A stretch of 61,314 bases of DNA from NCBI GenBank assembly GCA_964401055.1, contig CAYNWW010000001.1, forward strand, positions 41,689 through 103,002, written 5' to 3'. Shown one piece after another: positions 15,201 through 58,367 of this stretch. How positions within the stretch are numbered: the stretch's first letter is position 1; the number at the start of each line of letters is the position of its first letter. This DNA is from an uncultured Candidatus Saccharibacteria bacterium (GTDB lineage Bacteria; Patescibacteriota; JAUYIX01; CAYNWW01). The translations under genes and the position numbers were made by a program. The notes under the pieces are model-generated. The model saw only the letters and a program-made list of their open reading frames with translations, ran no database searches and was not told where the DNA came from.

Positions 15201-15224
15201 TATTACAAAATTAAACATATTCCC

Positions 15225-16241: not shown

Positions 16242-16254
16242 TTTCTAAAACGCG

Positions 16255-18784: not shown

Positions 18785-18793
18785 CATCCGCTC

Positions 18794-19675: not shown

Positions 19676-19691
19676 CGTTAATTTTATATCC

Positions 19692-26004: not shown

Positions 26005-26394
26005 ATGAAAAGGTTTTTCGCAAAGTATAAGCGCGAGCTCGGCACGACCTTGTGTGTCCTGTTGGTCGGCTCGGCGTCATTTGCGCTCGGCCGGATTTCG
26101 GTCCTGTATCACCAGGAGCCGCTGCACATCGCCGACGGTGCGCCGATCGAGCAACGAATTCAGGAGTCGTTGGCGCGGCTGCAAGAGGGGAGTGCGCCGT
26201 CTGTTTCGTCCTCGCCTGCCGATACCGCCACTCCTCCCAAAGGCGCATTTGTGGCCAGTTCCGGAGGGACAAAGTATTATCCCATAGATTGCAAGACTGC
26301 GCAACGGATTAGCGAAGAAAACCGCGTGTATTTTCAAACTGCCCAAGATGCAGAAGCGGCGGGGTATTCACTCACGACCGCGTGTAAAAACTAG
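26005..26394 (+). CDS. Hypothetical membrane-anchored protein with a C-terminal Ada-like ('sunset'-type) domain
   Basis: N-terminal TM helix. The C-terminus KYYPIDCKTAQRISEENRVYFQTAQDAEAAGY resembles the ..YH..C....I...N...F.S..EA...GY domain. Confidence 0.55.
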   Translation: MKRFFAKYKRELGTTLCVLLVGSASFALGRISVLYHQEPLHIADGAPIEQRIQESLARLQEGSAPSVSSSPADTATPPKGAFVASSGGTKYYPIDCKTAQRISEENRVYFQTAQDAEAAGYSLTTACKN

Positions 26395-27266
26395 CGTTTC
26401 TTTTTGGATTTCGCGCCGACGATTTTTTCGTATTCTTTTTTCATCAGCAGTGCGTCCTGCTCTTTGTCCGGGCTTTCGCAAATTGCGATTCCGCCTACGC
26501 CGCAATCCACAAACGCGCGCGCCAGTGCTTTGTAATCAAAATCGCATTCGGCGAAGTTGAGGTGGTTTTTTTCACCTTTTGTGGTGTAGGCGATGCCAGC
26601 AAATTGGATATGAATATCTTCGACGGCCTCCGACCCCAATTCGCGCCGGATCTGCTCAAATACACCGCAAAAACCTTCGTACGAATTAACCGCGCCTTGC
26701 GTACGTCCGACCAAATGTGCGAAATCAATGCACGGGCGGATGTTGTCGCGCAATTTGGACAGCTCGATGAGTTCCTCCAATGTGCCAAACACGCCCAATT
26801 TCCCACCGATTTCCGGTCGCAAGATGGCTGGGATTTTTTGCATACGCAACTCGTCGGCGACTTCGAGGAGATTTTTCTTTACATGTTCATAGGCTTCTTC
26901 CGGCGCTTGTTTCAGATAGGATCCTGGATGAAACGCGATATCGCGTGCGCCCGCCAGCGCACCGATTTTGGCAGCTTGCAGCAGCATGGATTTGGAGCCG
27001 GCGCCATCTGAGCCGGGTTTGGGATTGAGGTTGATATAATACGGCGCGTGGACGGTGAGTTTGATGCCGGCAGTCTCGACTTCTTTGCGCACGCGGGCGG
27101 CGAGCATGGGCTTCATAAATACGCCATGCACGAAGGCGAGCTCCATCGCCTGGAGGCCGATTTTTTTGACAAACGCGACGTTGGTCACGCTGTCGAGTTT
27201 TTTTGGTGCGAGCGGCGGCTGGGCGATGCCCGAACTGCCAAAAATGAGTGATGCCATATCAATCAT
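26391..27266 (-). CDS. nfo: Endonuclease IV (Nfo) family TIM-barrel protein
   Basis: HAPYYINL, FHPGSY, RPEIGG, CIDFAHL and ICESP align with the Endo IV metal-ligand blocks. Its stop overlaps the convergent gene at CTAG. Confidence 0.75.
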   Translation of the reverse strand: MIDMASLIFGSSGIAQPPLAPKKLDSVTNVAFVKKIGLQAMELAFVHGVFMKPMLAARVRKEVETAGIKLTVHAPYYINLNPKPGSDGAGSKSMLLQAAKIGALAGARDIAFHPGSYLKQAPEEAYEHVKKNLLEVADELRMQKIPAILRPEIGGKLGVFGTLEELIELSKLRDNIRPCIDFAHLVGRTQGAVNSYEGFCGVFEQIRRELGSEAVEDIHIQFAGIAYTTKGEKNHLNFAECDFDYKALARAFVDCGVGGIAICESPDKEQDALLMKKEYEKIVGAKSKKKR

Positions 27267-43169: not shown

Positions 43170-43874
43170 ATGAACAGGTTGTTTACTGCGATGCTTCTAT
43201 TTTTGGTTGCTTCGGTTGCCTCTGCGAGCGGTGATTTTACTGCTTCGTATGCGGAGAAGTCAATCTTAAAAATATTCGGCACAGTGCTGGATCAGCATTC
43301 GGTGGTGTTGCTGGAGGCTAACTACTATTTGGGAAAAAACAAAGAGTGGTTCGCGTATGCCGGCACGTCCCAGGAAATAAATCCGAGCAACCGAGTTCCT
43401 GGGGATGAGGGCGAATGGTACGACCTTATTGCGCTCAGGACCGTCACGGGGCCGCTCATGGCAGGTCTGGAAGTCTTCCATATTCCGAGTAAACGCGGGC
43501 TTCCGCATTTCACCTATCTGCAGCCGCAGATTTATCTCTATCTGAAATATGCGGTGGTGGGTGCTCAGATTATTCGTCCGATCGATACCACGGACGAAAA
43601 CGATCGCGCGATGGTGTATGCGGAGGGCATTCTCACGAAAACCTTTGCGGAAGATCGGGTGAGTGTGACTTTGAAGCCAGGGGCTTCCTATGGAGATTCG
43701 GGTGGCGGGAGAAAAACCATTTATCTCGACAGCCAGGCCGAGCTTGGGATTGACGAGAATAAAAGCTTTTCTTTGATCGCGCGATTTATTGTCGGGCGGA
43801 CGTGGTATGCGGATGCGCCCGATCCTGTCGATATGAAACCGACATGGACGGTTGGGCTCAAAACCGCATGGTAA
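43170..43874 (+). CDS. Hypothetical secreted protein, possibly a beta-barrel
   Basis: AGGAGG lies 7 nt upstream of the ATG at 43170. Signal peptide MNRLFTAMLLFLVASVASA. Alternating hydrophobic pattern. Ends ...GLKTAW. Confidence 0.55.
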   Translation: MNRLFTAMLLFLVASVASASGDFTASYAEKSILKIFGTVLDQHSVVLLEANYYLGKNKEWFAYAGTSQEINPSNRVPGDEGEWYDLIALRTVTGPLMAGLEVFHIPSKRGLPHFTYLQPQIYLYLKYAVVGAQIIRPIDTTDENDRAMVYAEGILTKTFAEDRVSVTLKPGASYGDSGGGRKTIYLDSQAELGIDENKSFSLIARFIVGRTWYADAPDPVDMKPTWTVGLKTAW

Positions 43875-43886
43875 ATTTGTATACTC

Positions 43887-43918
43887 GCCGGTGCTTTATC
43901 TGCACCGGCGATTTTTTA
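43887..43918 (+). terminator. Intrinsic terminator
   Basis: CGCCGGTGC-loop-GCACCGGCG followed by ATTTTTT. Confidence 0.65.
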
Positions 43919-43937
43919 TGAGCAAAAAAAGAACTCA

Positions 43938-44489
43938 CTAGTGTGAGTTCGGCGCAATGAGCGCGTAGAGCATTTCGTTTTCGAAACTGCCTCCCGTAGT
44001 AATTATACGGTCGGTGCGGTTTGCTTCTTCGAGAAATCCGAGCTTTTGCGCGATTTTTCTGCTTGCGTGATTTTGCTCGGAGCAGTGAATCTCAAGCCGG
44101 TGTAGATTGAGCTGAGAAAAAGCAAAATCTACAAGAGCGGCGACGCATCTAGAAACAATCCTCTGTCCTGCATAGTCCGCATCGATCCAATAGCCGATAG
44201 ATGCGCGCCGGTGCCGCGCGTTGATACTATGCAGTTCCATCCAGCCAACACAGGTATCTTCGGCGTAGATACCAATCGGGATCAGATGCGGTTCTGCGGC
44301 AAATGCGTGGTCGCAGGACTCAAAGTATGTGATTGTTTCCTCGAGCGTTGCGAAACTTGGCATGGAATCAAGCCACCGATGGAGATGAGCTCGATTTTTC
44401 TCTATGAGCTCGAAGAAAACTTTAGCATCAGCCGCAGTTCTTCTGCGGAGAGAAAGGCTTGGAGCAACCTCAATGAAAAAAAAGTTCAC
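43938..44489 (-). CDS. GNAT N-acetyltransferase (RimJ/RimL-like)
   Basis: GTG start preceded by GGAGGT. LRR....DA..F.......L..W... and the ..G.....L.....N..S....KLGF pattern. Confidence 0.8.
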   Translation of the reverse strand: MNFFFIEVAPSLSLRRRTAADAKVFFELIEKNRAHLHRWLDSMPSFATLEETITYFESCDHAFAAEPHLIPIGIYAEDTCVGWMELHSINARHRRASIGYWIDADYAGQRIVSRCVAALVDFAFSQLNLHRLEIHCSEQNHASRKIAQKLGFLEEANRTDRIITTGGSFENEMLYALIAPNSH

Positions 44490-44601
44490 GCGTAACCTCC
44501 GTGATTAAGCGTGCATATTATGACATGATAAATAAAAAAAGTCAACAAAAAACGGCAATTCTTAAGCGTGTGCTTCAGAGCTACCGTTTTTTGGATTTTC
44601 T

Positions 44602-44675
44602 TGGCTGCCCGGGTAGGATTCGAACCTACGATGGTGGATTCAGAGTCCACTGCCTTACCACTTGGCTACCAGGCA
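44602..44675 (-). tRNA. tRNA-Gln (anticodon CUG), CCA encoded
   Basis: The reverse complement folds as a cloverleaf. Acceptor UGCCUGG/CCGGGCA (the U1-A72 pair typical of bacterial tRNA-Gln), anticodon loop CUCUGAA, T-loop GGUUCGAAUCC. Confidence 0.9.
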
Positions 44676-44742
44676 ATACTGGTGTATTATTGCTTGTTCA
44701 GAGGAAAATTTCAAGAGCAAGCGCGGGCGCAGGTTGGAGTAG

Positions 44743-45660
44743 CTAAATTTTCAAATAGCGCCTGATGGCGATAAAGCTCGACAGGACGCCAATTGTGAGC
44801 GCGATGAGGAACTGACCGCCCACGAGTGCGACCCAGTGTTGTTGGGCATATGCGATCAGGTCGAGGTTGGTGTCTTTGAATAATGTGTTGACGCTGGGGC
44901 TTGCAATCACAAGCGCTGGATACAGGAGTGCGAGATTGGTGACTGTTGCAAAAATTGCGTATAGTACGCCTTCAAAAATGAATGGCCAGCGAATAAACCA
45001 GTTGGAGGCACCGACCAAACGCATGATTTCAACTTCTTCTTTGCGCGTATAAATGGTGAGGCGTACCGTGTTGAATGAAACAAGGATTGAGATCAGAATA
45101 AATACTACGCTTACTGTATACCCAGCGGTGCGGATTGTATTCGTTATATGAGTAAGGTTGTCTATTATTTCTTTATTGTCTTTGTAGTTGACGCTCTGGA
45201 CAGTTGCTTTGAATTTGTCTTGGCTCAGCTCTGCGGCAATGTCTTTGTAAAGCGTGGGGTTTTCTGCGACCACGGTGAAACTTGGCTGGAGCGGATTTTG
45301 ATCAAGCTCGGTAAGCGATTTGAGTATGAGCTCGTTGTCTTTGTGTTTTTCACGAAAATTTTTGAGCGCATCTTCCTGAGAAATGTAGGTGACGTCTTTG
45401 ATGCCGGAGTATGATTTGATGGTGCGCTCGATCGTGTCGATATCGTCCGGCTTTGCCGCCACTTTGAGATAGATACTGAGATCGACTTTTTGTTGCACGC
45501 TTTTGATGGCTGCGTCGCCGAGGATCTGCAGGGAACCTAAAATCGAAAGTGTAATCAGTGTGAGCGCAAGCACGGTGGTGGCGACAATCGAAAGCCAGAC
45601 ATTGCGGCGAATGTTGGTGAAGCCCATTTTGAATACGCGGAAGGCGCTGGTAGAAAGCAT
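44743..45660 (-). CDS. ftsX: Cell-division ABC transporter permease FtsX
   Basis: 305 aa, topology TM - large loop - 3 TM. Immediately downstream of ftsE. Confidence 0.88.
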   Translation of the reverse strand: MLSTSAFRVFKMGFTNIRRNVWLSIVATTVLALTLITLSILGSLQILGDAAIKSVQQKVDLSIYLKVAAKPDDIDTIERTIKSYSGIKDVTYISQEDALKNFREKHKDNELILKSLTELDQNPLQPSFTVVAENPTLYKDIAAELSQDKFKATVQSVNYKDNKEIIDNLTHITNTIRTAGYTVSVVFILISILVSFNTVRLTIYTRKEEVEIMRLVGASNWFIRWPFIFEGVLYAIFATVTNLALLYPALVIASPSVNTLFKDTNLDLIAYAQQHWVALVGGQFLIALTIGVLSSFIAIRRYLKI

Positions 45661-45664
45661 AGGT

Positions 45665-46357
45665 TTACAAAATGTATTTTCCGTTTTCTTGGCTGCGAAT
45701 GAGGCGACCGCTGTCGAGCGTAATGACGCGTTTGTTGATCATATTGACGATGTCGCGTGCGTGACTTGCAAAAATAACAGTGGTGCCGAGGGAGTTTATT
45801 TTGAGTAGGAGCTGGACGATTTCCCAAGAGTTGATGGAATCGAGATCGCCGGTGGGTTCGTCTGCAATCAGAAGCAGTGGCTTGTTGATCATCGCGCGGG
45901 CGATTGCTACACGTTGCTGTTCGCCACCGGAGAGTTGCTTTGGAAAACTATCTGCTTTGTGGCCAAGCCCCACGAGGTTCAGCATGCGCGGGACATCTTG
46001 GCGAATTTGTTTGCGTGGTTGGCCGGAAACTTCCATTGCGAATGCAATATTTTCGTACGCGGTCTTTTTTTCCAGTAATTTAAAATCCTGAAACACTACG
46101 CCGATGTCGCGGCGAAACAATGGCTTGTGTCGTTTGCGAATATGCTCAAGTCGCCAGATATGATCGTCAAGTTTGATATGAATCCGACCCGATGTTGGCG
46201 GCTCTTCTGCGATCAATAAACGAACGAGTGTGGTTTTCCCTGATCCGCTTTTACCGACGATGGAGACAAATTCGCCTTGCTGAATATCAAGACTGACGTC
46301 TTTAACCGCAGCCGTGTCGTTGTTGTAAATTTTTGTGACGTGGCGAAGTTTGATCAT
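45665..46357 (-). CDS. ftsE: Cell-division ABC transporter ATP-binding protein FtsE
   Basis: The ATG at 46357 gives MIKLRHVTKIY. Walker A GKSGSGKTT, signature LSGGEQQR, Walker B LLIADEPTG. Confidence 0.93.
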   Translation of the reverse strand: MIKLRHVTKIYNNDTAAVKDVSLDIQQGEFVSIVGKSGSGKTTLVRLLIAEEPPTSGRIHIKLDDHIWRLEHIRKRHKPLFRRDIGVVFQDFKLLEKKTAYENIAFAMEVSGQPRKQIRQDVPRMLNLVGLGHKADSFPKQLSGGEQQRVAIARAMINKPLLLIADEPTGDLDSINSWEIVQLLLKINSLGTTVIFASHARDIVNMINKRVITLDSGRLIRSQENGKYIL

Positions 46358-46363
46358 AGTGTG

Positions 46364-46508
46364 AGCTAATCCGTATCTCTCCAACCTCCCTGTTCCGGGG
46401 CAAGGCAGTTTGGAGAGATACGGATTAGCTTAAATTTTATTTGATGGGTTGGATTCCTCTCTCGCGTTGCCGTTCCGGGGCAAGCAACTTGCGAGAAGAA
46501 AGGAAACC
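46364..46508 (-). promoter_or_regulatory. Two tandem RNA hairpins with a shared 13-nt apical sequence in the prfB-ftsE spacer
   Basis: Hairpin 1 has a perfect 21-bp stem (46364-46384 / 46410-46430). Hairpin 2 has an imperfect stem over 46451-46508. Both apices carry GTTCCGGGGCAAG (46392-46404 and 46472-46484). Confidence 0.4.
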
Positions 46509-46517
46509 TCAGTTTTG

Positions 46518-47619
46518 TTATGTGATGTTTGCGCGCAGGGCGTGTTCGATAAATGTGTCGATGTGTCCATCCAGGACGGCGTCCACGTTGGATTCTTCGT
46601 AATTGGTGCGGTGGTCTTTGACGAGGCGGTACGGCTGCAACACGTAGGAGCGTATCTGATTGCCAAATTCTGCAGTGACATGCTCGCCTTTCATGCGTTT
46701 TTTTTCTTGCTCGTGGGCTAAGCGTTCGCGTTCGAAGAGTTTTGCGCGGAGGATTTTCATGGCCGCTTCTCTGTTTTGATGCTGAGAGCGCTCGCTCTGG
46801 CAGGCAACCACGATGCCGGACGGGATATGGGTGAAGCGGACAGCGGAGGATGTTTTGTTCACGTGCTGGCCGCCGGCGCCGCTTGCTCGAAAAGTGTCAA
46901 CGCGGAGGTCTTCTTTGCGGATTTCAAATTGTTTTTCTGCGATCACGGGCAGTACTTCCACAAGTGCAAATGAAGTCTGGCGGAGATGATCGGAGTTGAA
47001 TGGCGATAGACGCACCAGTCGATGCACGCCCGCTTCGGTGCGCAGATTGCCATAGGCATACGTGCCTGATATTTCAAGCACTGCGCTTTTGATCCCTGCT
47101 TCGGCGCCTTCAATTTTCGTCACGACTGTGATCGAAAATCCTTTTTCTTCCGCGTAGCGTGTATACATGCGCAGGAGCATATCGGCCCAATCCATGGCGT
47201 CCACTCCCCCGGCGCCTGCGTGGATCGAAAGGATGGCGTCGCCGCGATCGTATTCGCCGCTCAGCAAAAGTTCAATTTCTTTTTGCTCGAATGTGGCGGT
47301 TAGTTTTTGTAACGTGCCGGTAATCTCTTTTTCCAATTCAGCGCTTGAGGCGTCTTGTCCCACAAGTTCGGCCAGTTCCTGGATATAGTGTACTTCTTTT
47401 TCAAAGTCTTGCCAAAACACCACCTCAGCGCGCAGCGCCTCGGCTTGTTTGATAATTTCTTGAGCTTCGCTCGCGTCGTGAGATTGCCAAAAATCCGTCG
47501 CGCTGATTTGCGCGTCTAGTGCCGCGAGATCCTGAGCTACGTGGCGCTTGTCAAAGATACTCCTTGCGCTTGAGCAGCTTTTGGGCTAATTCTTGAATTT
47601 GCGACGCAAGTGATTGCAT
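46518..47619 (-). CDS. prfB: Peptide chain release factor 2, with programmed +1 frameshift
   Basis: Frame 0 starts at ATG 47619 and gives MQSLASQIQELAQKLLKRKEYL, then CTT TGA C at 47556-47550, preceded by AAGGAG. The +1 frame joins ORF 46518..47423. SPF and GGQ motifs are present. Total 366 codons. Confidence 0.93.
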
Positions 47620-47628
47620 GGCGTGATG

Positions 47629-48693
47629 TTAGGCCTCGTCGATGATTCGATCGAGAAATTTGATGCTGTTGTATGTTTCTTTTGCGCGCGCACCACCGCG
47701 GAAATAATTGTGAAGGTAGATTGGCTTGGGCGAAAGCTCGAGATTGATCACGCCGGTTTTTACGACGCCTGTTTTTTGGATGAGCAGCTTGATGAGCTCT
47801 TCGCTTTCTTCTTCTGTTTCTACGTCATAAATTTTGCCGTGCTTGTCGGCGTCGCCAGTGATGCGCATGGGCACGCGAAGTCGGGCGAAATATTTTGGAT
47901 ATGGGCTTGAATGTGGAGCTGGGCGTTCGGTCGGGAGAACTTGTGGATGATTGATGTGCGCGTAATTAATCAAATGTGCATAGGTGGTGATTGCTTTGCG
48001 CGCAGCCTTGAAGTCACCCTTCATGTTGATCAGTGTGTGACTCAGATCCATGGTGATGCCGACGTGCGCATCGATGTTCTGCGTTTTGCACCATGCGTTA
48101 ACAGTCTCTGCAACTGCAGCCACATTTTCATACGTATATCCGAAGCAATTGGAGAATCCATTCATCACGTCAATCTCGAGTGAGATCTGGACGCGCTGCT
48201 CTGCTGCGAGCTGCATGTTTTCTTTGAATTGATTGGAAATAACTTTTGTCATGCTGTCGTGATTTTCCGGACATACGGAGTTGTCGAGGTGAAACACGAG
48301 TAATGCGCGCGGTGCGTGTGTGCCGTCACTGAGTTGGCGTACGAGCTTGATTTGTGCAGCGATCGCGCGTACATTTTTATCGTAATCACTGAGGTTGCCT
48401 AAGAAAACAGCATTTTGAGGACGATGCGGCGGCGCAATGCCAATCATGCCGTGATAAGTCCCAACATTTTTCAATACTCCCCGCTCGTGATCGCGGACAA
48501 ATGCCGCAACTTCGTGTTCGCGAATGCTCCAGTCTGAATTAAAATAAGAACGCAGTGGAACATGCGCCTCAATTTGGCGATTGCACTCGGTGAGAAGTTT
48601 CCGCGAATAGGTCGTCCAAGGCAATTTGGACATCGCGTGGTAATACCGTAAATGTAGCTCAGGAATGACGATTTCGACGTTTTTTCTATTCAT
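47629..48693 (-). CDS. Xylose-isomerase-like TIM-barrel protein with an Endo IV-like metal-ligand pattern
   Basis: VFHLDN, SLEIDV, MDLSH, AHINH, DADKHG and INLE, in the order and spacing of the Endo IV ligands. Otherwise divergent. Confidence 0.5.
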   Translation of the reverse strand: MNRKNVEIVIPELHLRYYHAMSKLPWTTYSRKLLTECNRQIEAHVPLRSYFNSDWSIREHEVAAFVRDHERGVLKNVGTYHGMIGIAPPHRPQNAVFLGNLSDYDKNVRAIAAQIKLVRQLSDGTHAPRALLVFHLDNSVCPENHDSMTKVISNQFKENMQLAAEQRVQISLEIDVMNGFSNCFGYTYENVAAVAETVNAWCKTQNIDAHVGITMDLSHTLINMKGDFKAARKAITTYAHLINYAHINHPQVLPTERPAPHSSPYPKYFARLRVPMRITGDADKHGKIYDVETEEESEELIKLLIQKTGVVKTGVINLELSPKPIYLHNYFRGGARAKETYNSIKFLDRIIDEA

Positions 48694-48712
48694 CGGCGTG
48701 GGTTATAAAAGC

Positions 48713-49429
48713 TCATGTATAAAGGTATAATATACAATTTACCATCGCAAAAGTCAATCCGTGTGCGAGCATCGCCGACGCCAGCCCTTTTTTCCAATAC
48801 AGTACGCCGTAGACCAATTGAGGTACTGCAAAAATCGCTATGCCCAGAGTGGTTGTTTGCGGGTTCGATAGCCACTGCATGTGCACTGTGCTTGACGGGA
48901 GAGACAAAAATCCTGCTGCGATGCCTGTGAGTAAAATCGCTCCGGCAGCCGCAATTTTTCGCGGGAGATGGAGTGCGGTGGCAAGTGCCGCGATGACGCT
49001 GAACCCAAACCAGCGGAATACTATTTCTTGTGTGAGCGCATGATATGGTGCGAGTTCAGCGATATAGACGAGCGGAAGATGGGGGAAAAAATTGCCTGCT
49101 GCGGGCACAAACAATCGGCTCGCGAGTGCAAGTCCTCCAACCAAAACTACGAGTCCCACGCTTGCAAAAAATCCCGCAAGTACCCCGCCCTTTTCGATGA
49201 GTTGCAGATCAAACGTGCGAGCCATTGTGGTGCCAATGACCGTCATGACGCTCAGCAGCCCAGCAATCAGCGCAATGAGCAGCAAAAATGTGAGCCCAAG
49301 GTGCGGCGAGATTTCGGCAAGCGATGAGTGAAACGTCGCAAACGTGCTAATGAGCAGCGGGAGTATTCCGATGAATGCCGCGCAAAAAAGAATGGTATTT
49401 GTTTTGATATGGTGATGTCCGACTGTCAT
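48713..49429 (-). CDS. CPBP-family (CAAX/Rce1-like) intramembrane protease homologue
   Basis: The ATG at 49429 gives MTVGHHH. 6-7 TM helices. QEIVFRWFG (a variant of EExxxR) and HGLTFAMVN (the H...N motif). Confidence 0.65.
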   Translation of the reverse strand: MTVGHHHIKTNTILFCAAFIGILPLLISTFATFHSSLAEISPHLGLTFLLLIALIAGLLSVMTVIGTTMARTFDLQLIEKGGVLAGFFASVGLVVLVGGLALASRLFVPAAGNFFPHLPLVYIAELAPYHALTQEIVFRWFGFSVIAALATALHLPRKIAAAGAILLTGIAAGFLSLPSSTVHMQWLSNPQTTTLGIAIFAVPQLVYGVLYWKKGLASAMLAHGLTFAMVNCILYLYT

Positions 49430-49436
49430 GTGCGCG

Positions 49437-50573
49437 TTAGTTGTTTTTGAGGGATGCGCCGATGCCGCTGATTTGCTGCATGAGGCCTTCTTGTGCGCCT
49501 TCGCCTTGAGTGTGAACAAACTCGATAAATCCTTCGTCGTTCATTACACGTTTGACGAGAAATGGAATGATGTCCGTGACGTGGTGCAATTGGGCGCCAC
49601 AATGAGTGCAGGTCATGGTTGCGGTGGATTCTTTTGTGGCAAGTGAGGAGCAGCTTTCGCAATGGAGGCCTTCGAATGCGGTATCAAAATCGACGATCAG
49701 TTCGTGGATCTGTCCTTTGTTGGCAGCCGCAATCACGTCTGCGATGCCGCGAACGCCGTGCATGCCAGATTGTGTGAGTGCGGTGATTTTCTTCACTTCT
49801 TCCGCGTGTTCATATGCACGCGCTTCGCGCTTAAATTGATCGATCAGCGCGGCATCCGGCTGGAAAAGCTCTGCGTGAAATGTACCGATGAGGTACTTGG
49901 TGAGATGCTCTGGGAGTAGACCGCGAATGCTGTCGAGAGTGCTTTTTGGTGCGCCGATGATGAGACGTTGTGCATGAGATTTTTTGAAAAATGTGTCGAC
50001 GAGTGCGATAAGCTTGCGTTCGTGATTTGTCTCGCGGCCGATGACTTGGCGATCGTGGTCGCTCTTTGAGTGATCATCGCCATGGCGAGCGGGCTCTTCC
50101 TGCTCTTCTTCGTGATGTTCGCGCGCGATCACGGCGCCTGCGTGAATCGCAAACAAGCGCACACGTTTTTTATCCAGCGCGGCTCCGACAAAGAGTTCTT
50201 CATTGTCGATGAGCGCCATGAGCGGATGCACAAAAAAGCTTTGGTCAACAAATAGTTGGGTTCGCACTTCGGTCTCGACTTCGATCACGCGCCAAATTTT
50301 TTCTTCGGCATTGGCAAAAATTACCAGGCCTTCAGTACCCTTTTTGATTTCCGGGTTGGCGCGAAACTCTGCGATCTGCGCAAACGTCTTGGTAAGCGAT
50401 TTGAGTTCGGCTTTGCTTGCGTACATGTTTTCGTAGCTCTTGATGAGATTTTTGAGGCGCAGCTCAAATTCCTGTTTGTGTGTGCCCTCTTCTTTGAGAT
50501 TGAGGTAGAGCGAGACGGACGGGCTTGTGGTGCGGATGAGCGCGATTTCTTTCAGTTCGTTGAAGGTAAACAT
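49437..50573 (-). CDS. Bacterial aeRF1/Pelota-like protein (baeRF-type) with a Zn-ribbon insert
   Basis: The ATG at 50573 gives MFTFNELKEIA...SVSLYLNL, the N-terminus typical of bacterial eRF1-like families. The C-terminus ...GIGASLK is comparable to GGI(A/G)xxLR in eRF1/Pelota. CESC...CTHC. The ORF-track extension to 50777 overlaps tRNA-Gly. Confidence 0.55.
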   Translation of the reverse strand: MFTFNELKEIALIRTTSPSVSLYLNLKEEGTHKQEFELRLKNLIKSYENMYASKAELKSLTKTFAQIAEFRANPEIKKGTEGLVIFANAEEKIWRVIEVETEVRTQLFVDQSFFVHPLMALIDNEELFVGAALDKKRVRLFAIHAGAVIAREHHEEEQEEPARHGDDHSKSDHDRQVIGRETNHERKLIALVDTFFKKSHAQRLIIGAPKSTLDSIRGLLPEHLTKYLIGTFHAELFQPDAALIDQFKREARAYEHAEEVKKITALTQSGMHGVRGIADVIAAANKGQIHELIVDFDTAFEGLHCESCSSLATKESTATMTCTHCGAQLHHVTDIIPFLVKRVMNDEGFIEFVHTQGEGAQEGLMQQISGIGASLKNN

Positions 50574-50660
50574 ATGCGTTCGTGTTACTGTTCTTATGCC
50601 TTTATTATAGCACTTCGTCTGGATAATTGTAGGGTGCGGCGCGGGTGCGGGTGGCTTAAA

Positions 50661-50689
50661 TTGCGAAAAATCGGGCGCGCTGCTATGAT
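50661..50689 (+). promoter_or_regulatory. Candidate promoter TTGCGA-17-TATGAT for tRNA-Gly
   Basis: -35 at 50661-50666 and -10 at 50684-50689, 31 nt upstream of the tRNA 5' end. Confidence 0.35.
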
Positions 50690-50720
50690 GGACGTGTTCG
50701 CGCTTGGTGCGCGTCGCTGT

Positions 50721-50795
50721 GCGGGCGTAGTTTAGCGGTAGAATGTCTGCTTCCCAAGCAGAAGATCGTGGGTTCAAATCCCATCGCCCGCTCCA
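50721..50795 (+). tRNA. tRNA-Gly (anticodon CCC), CCA encoded
   Basis: Acceptor GCGGGCG/CGCCCGC, anticodon loop UUCCCAA, T-loop GGUUCAAAUCC. Confidence 0.92.
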
Positions 50796-50807
50796 AATTG
50801 GTGAAAG

Positions 50808-50838
50808 AAAAATCGGCCTTCGCGGCCGATTTTGTTTT
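50808..50838. terminator. Bidirectional intrinsic terminator
   Basis: AAAAATCGGCC-TTCGC-GGCCGATTTTGTTTT, between tRNA-Gly (+) and the Nudix gene (-). Confidence 0.6.
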
Positions 50839-51316
50839 ACATAAGTATTATGTTGGTCGGGTGCCCCATGTTTTTCCGATACATCTCCAGCGCATCCGCA
50901 TGGTCAAATGCGATTTGGTCCTGGGGCGGCAGGTCGTCCGGCGCGAACCACTGGAGGCGAGAAACTTCATCGTCTTTTGTCGGGTGCTGGGTTGTCGCGC
51001 GAGCGACAAAAACAAAGTCCACATTTTGACGATCTTCGGCTGGGCGGTGCGGATTTGTGTTGATGAGGAGCGGCTGAATGTCGGTCACTTCCCACCCGCT
51101 TTCTTCAAGGATTTCGCGCGCGGCGGCTTCGGTTGCGGATTCGTCGCGCGACATGTAGCCGCCAAGCAAACCCCACTTCCCTGCCTCGAGCATGATTTTT
51201 CCCGGCACGAGTGCGCGCTTGCCCAAGAGAATTTTTTCGTCTTTCACTACGATGGTGCTGACGGTGACGTGGCGCAGCTCGGCTGAGTTTCCATTTTCAA
51301 ATGCGCAGGTGATCAT
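50837..51316 (-). CDS. NUDIX hydrolase
   Basis: Nudix box GGYMSRDESATEAAAREILEESG. Confidence 0.88.
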   Translation of the reverse strand: MITCAFENGNSAELRHVTVSTIVVKDEKILLGKRALVPGKIMLEAGKWGLLGGYMSRDESATEAAAREILEESGWEVTDIQPLLINTNPHRPAEDRQNVDFVFVARATTQHPTKDDEVSRLQWFAPDDLPPQDQIAFDHADALEMYRKNMGHPTNIILM

Positions 51317-51330
51317 GGGCGTGGCGTGAT

Positions 51331-51940
51331 TTATTTGTTGATGAAATGCGCGACGATGCCGCGGGGCTTGAGGAGTTTGCCTTCGATCAGCCAGCGTCCA
51401 CGTGTAAATTTTATACCGTTTTCTTCGAGTGTGACAACATCGTCTGAAATATCTGTGATAATTGCGAATCGATCACCCTTCTGTAGGTATGATAACTCGT
51501 TTTGATATGACACTTTGCCCCCCCCCGTGAGAAAATTGCGATCCCAGCTGTTTATGATGAAGTATTCGTTGTTTATTTTTGTTGCATTGCCTGTCGTTGC
51601 AATAGTTCCGATTATGGCTAATGTGGAAATGGCCAGGATTGATGCGATGAAGATAATTTTTTTGCTCGATTGATTCTAAATCCTCATTGCGCAATTCCCG
51701 CCAGCCTACAAGATACGAGACATTCAGAATTATAAATGCGGCAAATGGTATCCACGCAGGATTGAAGTGCAATAGTGTATTGCTTCGCCATTCGGATATA
51801 AAGTTTACTGATGTGACGGTTATCAATGCTGCAAGCACCTTGAATGCTTTTTCGTATGCTTTGTGAAATATCGCAATCTAGCGTTCATCGGTCGGTTTTG
51901 CTTGGAACCAGAGGATGTTGTTGAAAAATGGTTTTTTCAT
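51331..51940 (-). pseudogene. Disrupted membrane-protein gene (in-frame TAG plus a frameshift at an A7 run). Its N-terminal module is paralogous to 51949..52590.
   Basis: MKKPFFNNILWFQAKPTDER-TAG(51880-51878)-IAIFHKAYEKAF...YLVGWRELRNEDLESIEQK parallels ALWFLRSPQDERENALYQKAYHNAF...YLVGWLALKNEELIEIQ. After the A7 run (51663-51657) the +1 frame continues KKIIFIASILAISTLAIIG... up to ORF 51331..51513. Confidence 0.55.
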
Positions 51941-51948
51941 TTTGGTGA

Positions 51949-52590
51949 TTAATAAATTGTAGTCGTGGTTGTGCTGCTCGTTGCCCCAAAGATCAGTACG
52001 TATGCTCCGAGCATGAGTGCGCCGATGATAATTGTTGTGAATATTGCGTTGATGATGCGCTTGCCCACTGGTGCAGTCGGCTCCAGGAAAAATCCGATCG
52101 TTTGGATTGGGAACAGGAGGCAAATTGGGATGCGGATGAAGAGCGGGACGCCTGCGGTGAGGTCTTTTGCGGTAAGGTACACATAGGAAATCGTACTCAC
52201 GCCGGCGATGATCGCAAATGGAAGTGCTGCGCTAAGAAAGATTTTTGCCAGCAAAGCGACGCCTGCGATGAAGATGGTGAGCATGATCGCAATAATCCAT
52301 ATTGGCGAGACGCTGCGTTTGCTTTGGTTGGATTGAATTTCTATTAACTCTTCATTCTTGAGTGCAAGCCAGCCGACAAGATATGCGATCGCAAATGCGA
52401 GCAGGATGATTGCTCGGACGTGAACTAGGTCGACACGCGTGTCAGTTCCAAAAAGCGAAATCCCCACAATCGCGGCGCTCGCAATCGCGCCGAGGGTGAA
52501 GAAGGCGTTGTGGTAGGCTTTTTGGTAGAGAGCGTTTTCGCGTTCGTCTTGAGGACTGCGAAGAAACCAAAGGGCGTTTGACTGCTTCAT
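51949..52590 (-). CDS. Multi-pass membrane protein downstream of an XRE regulator (DUF2178-like arrangement)
   Basis: 213 aa, about 5 TM helices. Starts 8 nt after the HTH gene. Confidence 0.6.
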   Translation of the reverse strand: MKQSNALWFLRSPQDERENALYQKAYHNAFFTLGAIASAAIVGISLFGTDTRVDLVHVRAIILLAFAIAYLVGWLALKNEELIEIQSNQSKRSVSPIWIIAIMLTIFIAGVALLAKIFLSAALPFAIIAGVSTISYVYLTAKDLTAGVPLFIRIPICLLFPIQTIGFFLEPTAPVGKRIINAIFTTIIIGALMLGAYVLIFGATSSTTTTTIY

Positions 52591-52598
52591 ATGCGTAA

Positions 52599-52808
52599 TT
52601 ATGAATTAAATGTAAAAATCTGTTCGATGGACGTGTTGAACAGGCGCGCGGCCTTGTGCGCGAGGTAGAGCGTGGGCTGGTATTTGCCTTGCTCGATCGC
52701 GTTGATGGTCTGGCGGGTGACTTCGAGGCGCTGGGCCAGTTCCTCTTGGGTGAGGTTGGCCTGGACGCGGAAGTCCTTAAGATGAGAAATGAGGGGTGGT
52801 GTGGGCAT
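52599..52808 (-). CDS. XRE-family helix-turn-helix transcriptional regulator (short, YozG-like)
   Basis: LTQEELAQRLEVTRQTINAIEQGKY.P.L.LA.K.A..F...IE.IF. Confidence 0.88.
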   Translation of the reverse strand: MPTPPLISHLKDFRVQANLTQEELAQRLEVTRQTINAIEQGKYQPTLYLAHKAARLFNTSIEQIFTFNS

Positions 52809-52850
52809 GGCGCGTAGAGGTGAAATGTAAAATACTCTTTACTTATTGAG

Positions 52851-52879
52851 AGTGTAAAGCATGTTTTACATAATGTCAA
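52851..52879 (-). promoter_or_regulatory. Promoter TTGACA-17-TACACT overlapped by the palindrome TGTAAAGCATGTTTTACA (candidate XRE operator)
   Basis: On the minus strand, -35 is at 52879..52874 and -10 at 52856..52851. The palindrome is at 52853-52870. Extra TGTAAAA/TTTTACA half-sites lie at 52826-52833 and 52885-52891. Confidence 0.5.
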
Positions 52880-52907
52880 GAGAGTTTTACATTTTGTGAT
52901 TTTGACG

Positions 52908-52937
52908 AAAAAGAAAAAACCGATCTGTGTGATCGGC
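52908..52937 (-). terminator. Intrinsic terminator of the 52947..53735 gene
   Basis: On the minus strand: CCGATC-ACACA-GATCGG followed by TTTTTTCTTTTT. Confidence 0.6.
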
Positions 52938-52946
52938 CTGAATGAA

Positions 52947-53735
52947 TCATTTTGCGGTTGCAATTCGTCCAATTGCGTTATACTCGTTTTCTATTCGTTG
53001 GAGCGCATATTGTTCTGCTTGAGTGAGCTTAAAGCCCTCAGAAATTGCGCGTTCTATAATTAGTTTGAGCACAAGTTCGCTGCCTCGAGCGTCTGATGAC
53101 TCAATGTGTATCTCGCTGACCCACCGTTGAAGATAGTTCAGCTCTTGGTGAGCTTTATTGAAAATGCTCTTCAGTGGTTTTTTTATGTCCGCAAGTCTTC
53201 GTTTTCCTACTCCTATCTCATTTGCAAGTCTATTAAAGCCCTCGATGAAATAGCTTATTCGCTGCACTAAGGAGCGCAAGTATATTATCCGACCATAGGC
53301 GATTGCGGGACTTGCTGGTTCGTGCGAGCTATGAAAACCGACTCCATAGCGTTTTTCGAACTGAGCCGCGCTTCTTTTTGCAGCATTCGCGCATCCACTT
53401 GCACGTTGTGTGAGCTCTGTGTCAGAAGCACTCTTTGCCGCACGAGCCTTCTTGCTGGCGCTTTGTACTAAGTCTCTATTCTCAATCCATTGATGAAGAA
53501 AGCTTCTTTCTTGGTCTCGTGTTTCAATCGCTTTGTGAGCTTTATCTTGCCATTCAATGCGGTCTTTTCCCGTCTTAAAAGACAGCTTCTTGATGTTTAG
53601 AAGTTGGTCTGAGATTTGAGTAATTTCTTCCGATAGGTTCTCGATTCGAGCAAAGGCGTCGTCAAATGACGATGGTGGATTATTCGCGCCGAAAGGTCTT
53701 GATGTCGTCTCCTGCTCTCTAGCTGCCGCTTGCAT
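52947..53735 (-). CDS. Hypothetical helical protein (262 aa)
   Basis: The ATG at 53735 lies 7 nt after AGGAGGG. The longer TTG-start ORF to 53792 has less support. No motif recognised. Confidence 0.6.
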   Translation of the reverse strand: MQAAAREQETTSRPFGANNPPSSFDDAFARIENLSEEITQISDQLLNIKKLSFKTGKDRIEWQDKAHKAIETRDQERSFLHQWIENRDLVQSASKKARAAKSASDTELTQRASGCANAAKRSAAQFEKRYGVGFHSSHEPASPAIAYGRIIYLRSLVQRISYFIEGFNRLANEIGVGKRRLADIKKPLKSIFNKAHQELNYLQRWVSEIHIESSDARGSELVLKLIIERAISEGFKLTQAEQYALQRIENEYNAIGRIATAK

Positions 53736-53832
53736 GAAAATGCCCTCCTGTTTGGGTCTCAGCCAGTATGGCACGGTCGGGCGAAAAGTCAAGGGTTGAG
53801 CTTCATGAGCAGACGTGTTATTATGGCCATGC

Positions 53833-53907
53833 GCCGGAGTAGCTCAGTGGTAGAGCGGCTGTTTCGTAAACAGTAGGTCGCGAGTCCGATTCTCGCCTTC
53901 GGCTCCA
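53833..53907 (+). tRNA. tRNA-Thr (anticodon CGU), CCA encoded
   Basis: Acceptor GCCGGAG/CUUCGGC, D-arm AGCUCAGUGGUAGAGC, anticodon loop UUCGUAA. The T-loop UCCGAUU is slightly non-canonical. Confidence 0.85.
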
Positions 53908-53929
53908 GAAGATAATTTGTGTGTTATGA

Positions 53930-53958
53930 AAAATACCGCCCAGCTGGGCGGTATTTTG
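53930..53958. terminator. Bidirectional intrinsic terminator
   Basis: AAAAATACCGCCC-AGCT-GGGCGGTATTTTG. Confidence 0.6.
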
Positions 53959-53989
53959 ATTGTTAAACATATGAATAAAAAATCCGACT

Positions 53990-54280
53990 TCAGGCAGTCG
54001 GATAGTCAACAGGTCTCTCGCTCAAGACATTCCAGTAACCGCCGGCGTCAATTTCCCATTCGGGATGATCCCACATCATTTCGACGAGTTGTCGTTTGCG
54101 CAGGCCTATTGATGCAAATGCGGACATGTAGGCGGATTCAGTCCTGGATGATAGCTGCCGGAGCAAAATCTCAGGTCGGTTTTTTGCCACCCATTGAAGT
54201 CTCCTTGGAATTCCATCAACAGTAATCACTTCTCTCTCTTCAAGCGGCTTCTTTGCTTTTTGCTTTTGGTAATGTGACAA
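53990..54280 (-). CDS. Hypothetical small protein (96 aa)
   Basis: TTG start preceded by AAGGAGGTG at 5-nt spacing. No motif recognised. Confidence 0.6.
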   Translation of the reverse strand: MSHYQKQKAKKPLEEREVITVDGIPRRLQWVAKNRPEILLRQLSSRTESAYMSAFASIGLRKRQLVEMMWDHPEWEIDAGGYWNVLSERPVDYPTA

Positions 54281-54334
54281 GATACACCTCCTTCATGGAA
54301 GGTTTTAGACTATCATAAGCGCAGATTTTTTTCA

Positions 54335-54364
54335 ACAAAAAAGCCCGAAATTTCCTACGGGCCT
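54335..54364 (-). terminator. Intrinsic terminator after the PPIase gene
   Basis: On the minus strand: GCCCG-TAGGAAATTT-CGGGC followed by TTTTTTG. Confidence 0.55.
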
Positions 54365-54385
54365 TCTTGCTGAATTGAAGAGCTA

Positions 54386-55330
54386 TTAAATGTACTTCGA
54401 AACCTTGAAATTCTTTTTCTGATCCCCGAGCCAGGTGTCGAAATCTTTTGGCTTCACGAGGATGTGGCGCGCAGTGAGTTTGTCGCCGTCTTTTTTCTCG
54501 AGTTTGATGATGTGGTAGCCGAATTCGGTTTGGACGATGCCGCTGATGTCGCCCGGCTGGAGCGCGTACGCTGCATCTTGAAATTCTTTGACCATGTCGC
54601 CTTTGGTGAATTCGCCCAAGCTGCCGCCGTCTGCTGCCGAGGTGTCTTCGCTTTCCTTTTTTGCGATTTCACCAAAGTCGGCGCCAGGTTTCTTCACTTC
54701 TTCCAACACGCGGTTGATTTTGTCCCACGCGTCTTTGTTTTCGCCGGTGTCTGCGATGAGCTTTTTCTGCAATTTGGTGCGCTCGATGTATGGGACTAAG
54801 ACGTTGTGCTTGAATTGGTCAGTATTCCAGCCATAGAGCTGCTTGAGGGTTTTTTTCACATCGTCTTCGCTGCCGGTTTGCTTGACTACGTTGCCAAATT
54901 CGGTATCGATGTCTGACTGCGCCACTGTGACGTCGTATTTTTTGCCGAGTTCATGCACGATTTCGTTTTCGATCAAGCGGTCGAGGACGGAGTCGATGAG
55001 TTGTTTCTTGTCTGCTGCCTGCTGGTCGGGAGAGGTCGCACTGTCTTTGGTCGCGTCCACGTAGGTCTCGATCGCCTTCACGTTCATGCGATAATCACCC
55101 ATGGTGATGATATTCCAGCCCACGCGCGCGGCCGGATATGGGATGAAATCTGCGATGGCTGCGGTTGCTTTGTTATTCCAGTGAAATTTGTATGCGTCGA
55201 GCGCAGGTACTGCAAGAATGGCTACTACAACAACGCCTGCTGCAACGCCGGCGGCAATTTTCATTTTTTTGTTGGATTTTTTTGGAGCTGTTGGTTCAGC
55301 TGGAGTGACGGGCGGCATCTGGTCAGACAT
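54386..55330 (-). CDS. Membrane-anchored parvulin-type peptidyl-prolyl isomerase (PrsA/SurA-like)
   Basis: The ATG at 55330 gives MSDQMPP, followed by a TM helix. PpiC domain GGSLGEFTKGDMV.EF..A...L.PG.IS.IV.T.FGYHII. Confidence 0.85.
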   Translation of the reverse strand: MSDQMPPVTPAEPTAPKKSNKKMKIAAGVAAGVVVVAILAVPALDAYKFHWNNKATAAIADFIPYPAARVGWNIITMGDYRMNVKAIETYVDATKDSATSPDQQAADKKQLIDSVLDRLIENEIVHELGKKYDVTVAQSDIDTEFGNVVKQTGSEDDVKKTLKQLYGWNTDQFKHNVLVPYIERTKLQKKLIADTGENKDAWDKINRVLEEVKKPGADFGEIAKKESEDTSAADGGSLGEFTKGDMVKEFQDAAYALQPGDISGIVQTEFGYHIIKLEKKDGDKLTARHILVKPKDFDTWLGDQKKNFKVSKYI

Positions 55331-55340
55331 GGAGATCAAG

Positions 55341-55769
55341 TTAATTATGTTCGGAAGAGAAAAAATAATTCCACCATTTTTCCGGATTGCTCGAATTGTC
55401 ATCAGGATGGTCGACTTTCGCTTGCGCACTGGCGATTTTATCCTGATCAGTCTCGTTGGCTTTCGCCGGAGGAATCGCGACTGCGGTCTCGCCCGGTTTC
55501 TGGAGGTTGAGCTTTTGGCGCGCTTCTTTTTCCTGGTAGGAATCGGTTTTGAAATAATCAATCACGTGAGCCAGCTCGGCGTTTTTTTGCTGCAGCTGCG
55601 CGATATCCGCGCGCACTGAGGAAATCTCCTGGTTGATCTGGTAGCTGCGATACACTTCTTTGCCGAGCGAAATGCTGAGCAGTACCAGCACCACAAATGT
55701 GCCGGCGAGCACTGCTTTCGAGGTCAAAAATCGCGTCTTGAGATCGGTACTTGGCCGTTGATTTGCCAT
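55341..55769 (-). CDS. Septum formation initiator family protein (FtsB/DivIC-like)
   Basis: TM helix plus a coiled coil, ...L...N..L...I........E..AR..L.L..PGE. Confidence 0.7.
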   Translation of the reverse strand: MANQRPSTDLKTRFLTSKAVLAGTFVVLVLLSISLGKEVYRSYQINQEISSVRADIAQLQQKNAELAHVIDYFKTDSYQEKEARQKLNLQKPGETAVAIPPAKANETDQDKIASAQAKVDHPDDNSSNPEKWWNYFFSSEHN

Positions 55770-55793
55770 AACTATAGCATCAGTTAGTCATTT

Positions 55794-56384
55794 CTACAAC
55801 TGCTTTTTCTGAGAATCTGTTGAGCGCGCTTTCTGTTGCTCGAGGAGATCGAGAAGTTGGCGGGCTGTGAGCTCTTGCTGGTTTTCTGAGTGTTCTTCTT
55901 TGTATTCACGCTGAATTTGCACAAGAAGCTCTTGGAGCTCGTGCGGACGATGAATGTGGTCGAGGCTGATGAGATTTTGTGAGCCTGCAGTTTCGACCAG
56001 GCAGCTGCCGTAGCCAAAAATCGTTGCGATAATTCCGTTGATCGAGTACGTCACATCCTGGATTTTATCAATCTCAGTCTCGGAAACCGACCGGCGAAAC
56101 AGCCCGCGTTGATCGATATCGATGATGCGCAAATTGGTAATGATGAAACTGTCGAGGTACCAGGTGATCGACTCATATGCGACATACAACAGACAAAGCG
56201 CGAGCCAGCCGACGAGTACTGTACCTCCCAGTGGCGAAGCAAGCAAAAATGTGATAAAAAAGAACGGGAGCGCGGCCGCAACGACCGCCTTCAGAAGCGG
56301 TGCCGCAAGTGTAATCCAATGCTTGCGCACGATCTGAATGATCTGTTCATTTTCTTTAAGTTCGTGAGAAAAGTAGTTAAACAT
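55794..56384 (-). CDS. Membrane protein with a bacterial PH-like (YdbS/bPH_2-like) organisation
   Basis: L.ENE.II.IVRKHW, then two TM helices, then a beta-rich domain. The call is tentative. Confidence 0.55.
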   Translation of the reverse strand: MFNYFSHELKENEQIIQIVRKHWITLAAPLLKAVVAAALPFFFITFLLASPLGGTVLVGWLALCLLYVAYESITWYLDSFIITNLRIIDIDQRGLFRRSVSETEIDKIQDVTYSINGIIATIFGYGSCLVETAGSQNLISLDHIHRPHELQELLVQIQREYKEEHSENQQELTARQLLDLLEQQKARSTDSQKKQL

Positions 56385-56404
56385 TAAACGCGGAGATTGA
56401 TGAT

Positions 56405-56500
56405 ATGAAACAAGCTGTAAAAAAATGGGTCATGGTCGGACTGGTTGGAATCGTGAGTCTGAGCATGGTGCTGTCGCTCATTATACCGTTTTTGCAGTAA
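56405..56500 (+). CDS. Small hydrophobic peptide (31 aa), below the ORF-track cutoff
   Basis: GGAGA lies 8 nt upstream of the ATG. MKQAVKKWVMVGLVGIVSLSMVLSLIIPFLQ. Followed directly by a terminator. Confidence 0.45.
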   Translation: MKQAVKKWVMVGLVGIVSLSMVLSLIIPFLQ

Positions 56501-56504
56501 AAAT

Positions 56505-56533
56505 AAAAAGCGCCTCTTTGTGAGGCGCTTTTG
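56505..56533. terminator. Bidirectional intrinsic terminator
   Basis: AAAAAGCGCCTC-TTTGT-GAGGCGCTTTT, between the small ORF (+) and lepA (-). Confidence 0.65.
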
Positions 56534-56543
56534 CTGTGTCGAG

Positions 56544-58352: not shown

Positions 58353-58367
58353 ACGCGTGCGAATGTG

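Follow-up and report, generated by a model that had tools for sequence, protein, structure and literature searches.

It was not until 2024 that bacterial homologues of archaeo-eukaryotic release factor 1 (aeRF1) of the Balon type came to be recognised as hibernation factors (PMC10901736). Balon of P. urativorans and its mycobacterial homologues, M. smegmatis MSMEG_1130 and M. tuberculosis Rv2629, are three-domain proteins of the bacterial aeRF1 superfamily, about 370 aa long; they lack a GGQ motif and inhibit translation, and Balon homologues are induced by hypoxia and in stationary phase (PMC10901736). Among the baeRF-1 families, family 10 has been set apart as possibly catalytic from its VLRF1-type GGxSQ loop (Burroughs & Aravind 2019, PMC6514570). 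Here we describe a family-10 gene and its neighbours in a 61,314-nt stretch of DNA from contig CAYNWW010000001.1, which we refer to as the window and whose numbering we use throughout. Six genes lie on one strand in the order baeRF10, a CPBP-like membrane protein, a TIM barrel resembling endonuclease IV (Endo IV), prfB, ftsE and ftsX, with tRNA-Gln after ftsX. The prfB-ftsE-ftsX order is conserved in Gram-positive-type and candidate phyla radiation genomes; unlike it, the block in the window is extended upstream by three non-canonical genes.

We tentatively favour, at slightly less than an even chance, a reading in which the block expresses a non-hydrolytic, Balon- or Pelota-like A-site factor together with RF2, with the TIM and CPBP-like proteins as accessories. 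The first three genes would form the front half of a six-gene, same-strand and probably co-transcribed block. By homology to Balon, aRF1 and Pelota, the baeRF protein would dock in the ribosomal A site and act there without peptidyl-tRNA hydrolysis, parking the ribosome (hibernation) or rescuing it, and its expression would accompany that of RF2. The TIM protein would be a phosphoesterase with a trinuclear metal site of the Endo IV type, cleaning 3' ends of nucleic acids or apurinic/apyrimidinic (AP) sites, and we regard it and the CPBP-like gene as putative co-expressed accessories, not as demonstrated subunits. The sequence shows the gene structure, the family memberships, the state of the loop and motifs, and the synteny; A-site binding, the absence of hydrolase activity, a common transcript and a role in stress or dormancy are what we infer. 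A joint function of the three genes is possible, with modest support for their working together. The neighbourhood is new and is built around a known protein family, of which the 378-aa baeRF protein is a new, divergent member. Neither PMC6514570 nor PMC10901736 describes a prfB/ftsEX neighbourhood for a baeRF gene, the loss of the loop within a conserved family-10 block, or a small prfB-tied Endo IV-like family. The loci compared include L003 (JGI 3300013121 Ga0172278_1040), a strain variant 98.35 % identical over 15.3 kb (window 43399-58691); L001, a Logan contig from a clearly different organism; and L004, a 'Candidatus Saccharibacteria' metagenome-assembled genome (MAG).

The 378-aa protein matches Pfam baeRF_family10 (PF18854) over residues 114-252 with 48.1 bits (gathering threshold (GA) 27.1, E value 1.8e-12). 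Its ortholog in L001 scores 73.1 bits on the same model and also exceeds the Pfam thresholds for acVLRF1 and eRF1_2. The window protein aligns over its full length with family 10 and has the three-domain (N, M and C) aeRF1 architecture with a zinc-ribbon insert; this C-terminal CxxC...CxxC ribbon (C305, C308, C322 and C325) is invariant in the family alignment, as are S21, Y23 and K41-N42-x-x-K45. There is no NIKS string in its N domain. A profile of 17 family-10 sequences searched against solved structures matched MSMEG_1130 over its full length (8v9j, residues 20-375 of 375; E 3.2e-24), followed by eRF1 and aRF1 (E ~1e-13; aRF1 4af1, residues 21-392), Rv2629 (E 3.6e-9), P. urativorans Balon (E 3e-8) and Pelota (E 1.6e-6). 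The top two NCBIfam matches are Balon-type ribosome hibernation factor models (NF052287 and NF052288). The nearest database relatives, about 373 aa long and 22-28 % identical, include several from Nitrospirota/Thermodesulfovibrionales and two from Planctomycetota; two database homologues carry the NCBI label 'Vms1/Ankzf1 family peptidyl-tRNA hydrolase'. Single-sequence searches of the PDB with each of the three proteins gave no match; family profiles alone succeeded. The eRF1/Pelota-like assignment made in a preliminary description of this DNA, drawn from the letters and their reading frames, is upheld by the PF18854 score and the profile matches. Its remark that no characterised counterpart could be named has to be withdrawn, as the protein falls in Pfam baeRF_family10 (PMC6514570) and the closest solved relative of the profile is Balon (PMC10901736). 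Judged by these matches, the protein is an aeRF1 homologue that belongs to family 10 and is not orthologous to Balon.

The Gly-Gly of the family-10 loop aligns with that of the eRF1 GGQ motif in the family profile alignment. This loop reads GGW..S(Q/E) in the Nitrospirota proteins and most other family-10 members, and GGWSQ in the L001 ortholog. Unlike these, the window protein has D166-D167-H168-S169-K170 (DDHSK), with neither the conserved Gly-Gly nor the Gln. Because the GGQ-equivalent loop is destroyed, on the eRF1/Vms1 paradigm the protein most likely does not hydrolyse or cleave peptidyl-tRNA, and it is probably a non-hydrolytic A-site binder. It resembles Balon in length and domain number and in lacking both GGQ and NIKS. 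Balon is marked by an HP motif, a lasso loop, a bL27 trap, a beta-hairpin in the C domain and A-site binding assisted by EF-Tu; H116-P117 of the window protein aligns with FIHPL of MSMEG_1130, and not with P. urativorans Balon.

The 354-aa TIM protein by itself scores 26.8 bits on AP_endonuc_2, below the GA of 31.1, and 33 of the 34 aligned members of its family match this model at E<=0.01 (best 7e-25); the Endo IV-like call of the preliminary description is therefore sustained through the family. An exhaustive hidden Markov model search of 1.84e9 representative proteins returned 45 representative clusters at E<=1e-3 and 24 at 1e-10, and the family is very small. Its profile matches MJ1311 (3wqo) at 2e-18, then Endo IV structures at ~1e-14 to 1e-8, with sugar epimerases much weaker. 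The putative tri-metal ligand set comprises H81, H135, E173, D216, H219, H246, D283, H285 and E319. In the family alignment H81, H135, E173, D216, H219, H246 and E319 are conserved in 34/34 sequences, as is a further residue, E42; D283 is conserved in 31 and H285 in 29 of the 34. An hhalign comparison with an E. coli Nfo sequence whose numbering reproduces the published ligand positions gave 96 % probability with eight of nine ligands in register: H135, E173, D216, H219, H246, D283, H285 and E319 correspond to Nfo H109, E145, D179, H182, H216, D229, H231 and E261. HMMER alignments to Endo IV structures in the PDB likewise bring five of the metal ligands into register. H81 would be the equivalent of Nfo H69, from its invariance and its strand-end position in an AlphaFold2 model, and with it the TIM protein would have all nine residues of the trinuclear metal site (E. 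coli H69, H109, E145, D179, H182, H216, D229, H231 and E261).

The TIM protein shares with Endo IV (Nfo) and MJ1311 the TIM-barrel fold and the ligand pattern H..H..E..DxxH..H..DxH..E. It exceeds them in length by about 70 residues and has an N-terminal extension that carries the invariant E42 and inserts at residues 83-99 and 258-283, and on the nfo model TIGR00587 it reaches 13.2 bits against a cut-off of 129.65. Its AlphaFold2 model (predicted local distance difference test (pLDDT) 63, predicted template modelling score 0.73) finds xylose-isomerase-like barrels, including Endo IV, at template modelling scores of 0.5-0.65. The genes are real and under constraint; comparison with L003 gives 34 synonymous and 5 non-synonymous codon changes in the TIM gene, a mark of purifying selection. 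The window contains a second, more canonical Endo IV-like gene, which scores 97.6 bits on AP_endonuc_2, matches Endo IV in the PDB (1xp3, E 9e-10) and reaches 51.8 bits on TIGR00587, under the cut-off. We considered the prfB-linked TIM gene as a recent duplicate of this gene and rejected it, the BLASTP comparison being not significant and the profile match remote (E 8.5e-5). With the second gene present, the prfB-linked TIM protein is not the only candidate AP endonuclease in the window.

The 238-aa membrane protein is polytopic, with a CPBP/Rce1-like domain at residues ~120-226. At full length it matches nothing in Pfam, NCBIfam, the PDB, PHROGs or PADLOC, and a word-indexed homologue search returned only the protein itself. 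Scanned alone, its C-terminal half matches PF02517 at 27.1-27.6 bits (GA 22.4, E ~4e-6), a result reproduced with four different cut points and with the variant from L003, so that the CPBP call of the preliminary description holds for this half; the N-terminal hydrophobic half evidently suppresses the full-length match. The L001 ortholog, 26 % identical, gave no PF02517 match when scanned alone. The residues that bear on activity are Q134-E135-xxx-R139, H183 and H223...F227, which we read against the published CPBP motifs EExxxR, FxxxH and HxxxN. The second Glu, the Arg and two His are kept as in CPBP/Rce1-like (Abi) proteases, H183 without its canonical Phe; the first Glu is replaced by Gln in the window and by Gly in L001, and the Asn of HxxxN by Phe in both. 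Two catalytic positions thus appear to be lost, and the protein is probably of CPBP fold without being an active protease, more likely a scaffold or regulator. The single-sequence AlphaFold2 model has a pLDDT of 52, and its Foldseek matches are meaningless. Between the window and L003 the gene has 11 synonymous and 8 non-synonymous changes, which suggests weak constraint. The earlier idea that these proteins process stalled nascent chains or damaged RNA ends finds no catalytic support in two of the three.

The features of the block are collected in Table 1. The open reading frame (ORF) list and our reading of the sequence agree with the preliminary description on the positions and spacing of the three minus-strand genes: 7 nt separate baeRF from the membrane gene (TAA 49437-49439 to ATG 49429), 19 nt the membrane gene from TIM (TGA 48713-48715 to ATG 48693), and 9 nt TIM from prfB (TAA 47629-47631 to ATG 47618). 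prfB encodes a genuine RF2 (TIGR00020 cut-off 370) and carries, as read from the sequence, a programmed +1 frameshift site, AGGAG-TAT-CTT-TGA-C, at 47565-47551 (Shine-Dalgarno (SD)-like AGGAG 47565-47561, CTT 47557-47555, TGA 47554-47552).

Table 1. Positions of the features discussed in the text, in window numbering.
Feature	Position	Strand	Size	Basis
baeRF_family10 gene	49437-50573	minus	378 aa	ORF list and Pfam
CPBP-like membrane gene	48713-49429	minus	238 aa	ORF list and partial Pfam match
Endo IV-like TIM barrel gene	47629-48693	minus	354 aa	ORF list and family profile
prfB (RF2)	46518-47618	minus		TIGR00020, 430.9 bits
prfB-ftsE spacer, two hairpins	46385-46517	minus		minimum free energy folding
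ftsE	45665-46384	minus		ORF list; Pfam ABC_tran on near-identical L003 contig
ftsX	44743-45660	minus		ORF list; Pfam FtsX_ECD/FtsX on near-identical L003 contig
Candidate extended -10 promoter element, TGcTATAAT	50604-50612	minus		sequence reading, consensus resemblance only
tRNA-Gly	50721-50795	plus		tRNA position
Bidirectional terminator-like palindrome	50809-50833	strand-neutral		terminator scan
Second, more canonical Endo IV-like gene	26391-27266	minus	291 aa	

The candidate extended -10 element lies ~31 nt upstream of the baeRF start codon. Further upstream, between a NUDIX gene on the minus strand and tRNA-Gly on the plus strand, is a perfect 10-bp GC-rich palindrome with A/T runs on its flanks; it is likely a bidirectional terminator, and its hairpin the likely 5' limit of the transcription unit. 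The preliminary description saw no terminator before prfB. This stands, since the gaps are too short to leave room for one and terminator-like matches inside genes occur at chance level (13 found, 11.7 +/- 3.8 expected). A sigma-70-like match, TTGACT-17-TATATT, lies at 48757-48729, inside the membrane gene at its 3' end and a short way before TIM starts, and is kept in L003 and not in L001. An internal promoter ahead of TIM is therefore possible, and co-transcription of the six-gene block is plausible on the layout of the sequence.

Downstream, prfB is followed on the same strand by a structured spacer and ftsE and ftsX, much as the preliminary description had it. The spacer folds with a minimum free energy of -45.9 kcal/mol (z -3.26 against shuffles), and UUGCCCCGGAAC is present in the loop region of each of its two hairpins; these are its only two occurrences in the whole window. 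In the predicted fold the second hairpin covers the ftsE SD sequence and TTG start codon. An Rfam search of the spacer found no matching family. L001 lacks the spacer, and prfB and ftsE overlap there.

The whole block is present in L001, with the same six genes in the same order, bearing out the expectation that the neighbourhood is conserved with prfB in a related genome. The identities are 31.5 % for baeRF and 48 % for TIM. The baeRF and membrane genes of L001 overlap by 4 nt, and its prfB frameshift site is identical to that of the window. In both genomes the six genes are contiguous, with overlaps or gaps of <42 nt, and the genes flanking the block have been exchanged (Na_Ca_ex in L001 against NUDIX, HTH and tRNA genes in the window). 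Macro-synteny between the two reaches well past the block and includes MurJ, LepA, bPH_2, DivIC and a PpiC rotamase. The complete six-gene block was found in two independent lineages only.

The differences between the window and L003 are mosaic, with 123 in 47000-49000, 92 in 54500-57500 and 2 between 49500 and 54500. The first tract takes in the 5' part of prfB, TIM and the 3' half of the membrane gene, and there are none in the baeRF gene; the pattern suggests recombination tracts between these strains. Collinearity with L003 stops at ~43399, where L003 has a resolvase/Toprim element.

Five loci (window/L003, L001, L002, L004 and L014) have TIM next to prfB, overlapping it or 2-41 nt away, and this adjacency is kept in another lineage down to 28-32 % TIM identity, with different upstream genes. 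The Saccharibacteria-type loci L002, L004 and L014 have GreA, a ~150-aa Zn-ribbon protein, TIM, prfB, ftsE and ftsX, with TIM overlapping prfB or 2 nt from it and with neither a baeRF nor a CPBP gene. The prfB, ftsE and ftsX genes stand side by side on the same strand in the window and in L001, L002 and L004. The more distant TIM-family members in L013, L016, L098 and L099 are not beside prfB. Another, in L017 (2943-4449), follows a winged helix-turn-helix-like gene and overlaps a stand-alone LigD_N (3'-phosphoesterase) gene by 8 nt, which hints at nucleic-acid end-healing chemistry for the family. Family-10 baeRF genes of Nitrospirota/Thermodesulfovibrionales have neither TIM nor prfB as a neighbour; they overlap an upstream AI-2E_transport (PF01594) gene by 8 nt (L009 3959-6122; L010 3923-6122), and baeRF seems recurrently coupled to some membrane protein. 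In L010 a Ribosomal_S30AE hibernation factor gene lies with rpoN ~3.3 kb away on the opposite strand. Since TIM-prfB occurs without baeRF or CPBP genes and Nitrospirota baeRF genes occur without TIM or prfB, the three genes are not a fixed trio and do not behave as one evolutionary unit, a correction to the preliminary description, which took them as a candidate for one system. The robust pair is TIM-prfB, and the conserved partner of TIM is prfB, not baeRF.

The Zn-ribbon protein upstream of TIM-prfB (L002 821-1285, L004 5522-5983, L014 3548-3955) belongs to the BCAM0308 family (NF040826, 106.8 bits against 100) and has weak similarity to NMD3. As a fragment or relative of baeRF it was rejected, with an hhalign probability of 0.9 %. 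The family takes its name from BCAM0308, a hypothetical gene in lxa, the Burkholderia stress locus that low oxygen activates (PMC4981469). A ribosome-associated role for this protein is conceivable. A role of the block in stress or dormancy is suggested by analogy only, from the Balon homologues induced by hypoxia and in stationary phase and from the BCAM0308-family protein that occupies the slot in Saccharibacteria.

Several observations weigh against the proposal of a non-hydrolytic A-site factor expressed with RF2. The relationship of the baeRF protein to Balon is distant: its NCBIfam scores are far under the equivalog cut-offs of the Balon-type models (52.1 bits against 330, and 37.2 against 480), and a profile built from two sequences, the window protein and the ortholog in L001, matches archaeal aRF1 (1.4e-6) better than Balon (0.007). 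The C domain of the baeRF protein also carries a zinc ribbon at the place of the beta-hairpin insert found in Balon. The possible catalysis of family 10 (PMC6514570) is a further point; since the ortholog keeps GGWSQ in the one other block that is complete, the block may have had a catalytic function ancestrally. RaiA/HPF, Hsp20 and RtcB, which have been described as neighbours of Balon and baeRF genes, were not seen in the scanned parts of the window, and the prfB/ftsEX/Endo IV-like/CPBP setting is unlike the RaiA, Hsp20 and RtcB setting of Balon (PMC10901736). The promoter-like match ahead of TIM likewise counts against expression of the block as one unit.

In an alternative reading the system is a bacterial analogue of eukaryotic Vms1/ANKZF1 and ELAC1/TMS5, which recycle tRNA as a branch of ribosome-associated quality control. 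When ribosomes stall, the baeRF10 protein would cleave or hydrolyse their peptidyl-tRNA, the TIM protein would remove a 2',3'-cyclic or 3'-phosphate so that CCA can be re-added, and the membrane protein would tether the system or handle the released chain. GGW..S(Q/E) at the GGQ position in L001 and most of family 10, the acVLRF1 and eRF1_2 scores of the L001 protein and the NCBI naming of two homologues all speak for it, as does the translational coupling of family-10 genes to genes for membrane proteins, seen in two phyla. Vms1 yields cP-deltaCCA-tRNAs that require a cyclic phosphatase (PMC11831146), the TIM family retains the 3'-end-cleaning metal site of Endo IV, and its L017 member overlaps a 3'-phosphoesterase gene. 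Against this, the window loop has no Gly-Gly and no Gln, TIM stands beside prfB without baeRF in Saccharibacteria, the Nitrospirota family-10 genes have no TIM neighbour, and no RqcH or CCA-adding gene was seen nearby. We also know of no Endo IV-type enzyme that acts on RNA cyclic phosphates. On balance we consider this alternative improbable. We regard as an equally long shot the idea that baeRF10 and the Endo IV-like phosphoesterase are the bacterial counterpart of Vms1 and ELAC1/TMS5, or, more broadly, that TIM is an RF2-associated RNA-end phosphoesterase whose upstream slot takes interchangeable ribosome-silencing factors, baeRF here and the BCAM0308/NMD3-like protein in Saccharibacteria.

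A serious rival, although we hold it less likely than not, is that the genes share no function: genome compaction would have crowded them into a conserved prfB-ftsEX neighbourhood that is passed on as a whole, with TIM serving DNA repair, the CPBP-like protein envelope biology, as ftsEX does, and baeRF acting as an independent stress gene. As the window and L001 share macro-synteny far outside the block, their gene order may simply be a matter of common descent; in other loci the neighbours of each of the three families are different, and the complete block is confined to two independent lineages. Unrelated genes would be less expected to remain contiguous where the flanking genes have been exchanged, as the six have, or to keep TIM at prfB at such low TIM identity and behind other upstream genes. 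We give very little credence to a conflict or defence module in which baeRF would oppose ribosome-targeting effectors, as proposed for some baeRF-1 families. The baeRF-1 pathways have been proposed to have arisen in biological conflicts and to have spread by lateral transfer (Burroughs & Aravind, PMC6514570), but PADLOC gave no match for the three proteins and the PHROGs matches were not significant, and the block sits amid housekeeping genes, is syntenic between divergent genomes and contains no mobile-element signatures.

Comparative power and general importance are limited by the rarity of this lineage, which is essentially absent from the GTDB representatives and the JGI contig collection as searched. 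Profile scans of the JGI metagenome contigs with TIM and baeRF profiles found no relatives, and a GTDB genome scan with the window/L001 baeRF pair found nothing. Two of the alignments were so divergent that loci could not be scanned with them. GTDB scans with TIM profiles found one Saccharibacteria MAG only, and GTDB prfB relatives at ~52 % identity to the window prfB were not syntenic. The window LepA is <=54 % identical to the GTDB representatives found, which are from unrelated phyla. Elsewhere in the window, positions 900-20700 on the plus strand hold a ribosomal-protein/SecY operon (L2, S3, L5, SecY) followed by sugar and glycolysis genes (GT2, GalT-like, TPI, class II FBA, GAPDH, PGK, enolase, a metalloenzyme-superfamily protein (PF01676) and a PfkB kinase), which would be useful for phylogenetic placement of the organism.

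Family 10 is the one bacterial aeRF1 family suspected of keeping catalysis. The cluster described here links a family-10 gene directly to the RF2 gene, outside the described neighbourhoods, and its loop shows that such a block can be conserved and yet lose the catalytic motif. It also brings to light a very small family of Endo IV-like proteins; in every case the genes of its closest members lie directly upstream of prfB, in uncultured lineages of small-genome type that include Saccharibacteria. If the TIM-prfB link is not functional, it is simply a lineage-specific gene arrangement; if it is, a nucleic-acid end-processing step would be coupled to translation termination or ribosome rescue in these organisms.

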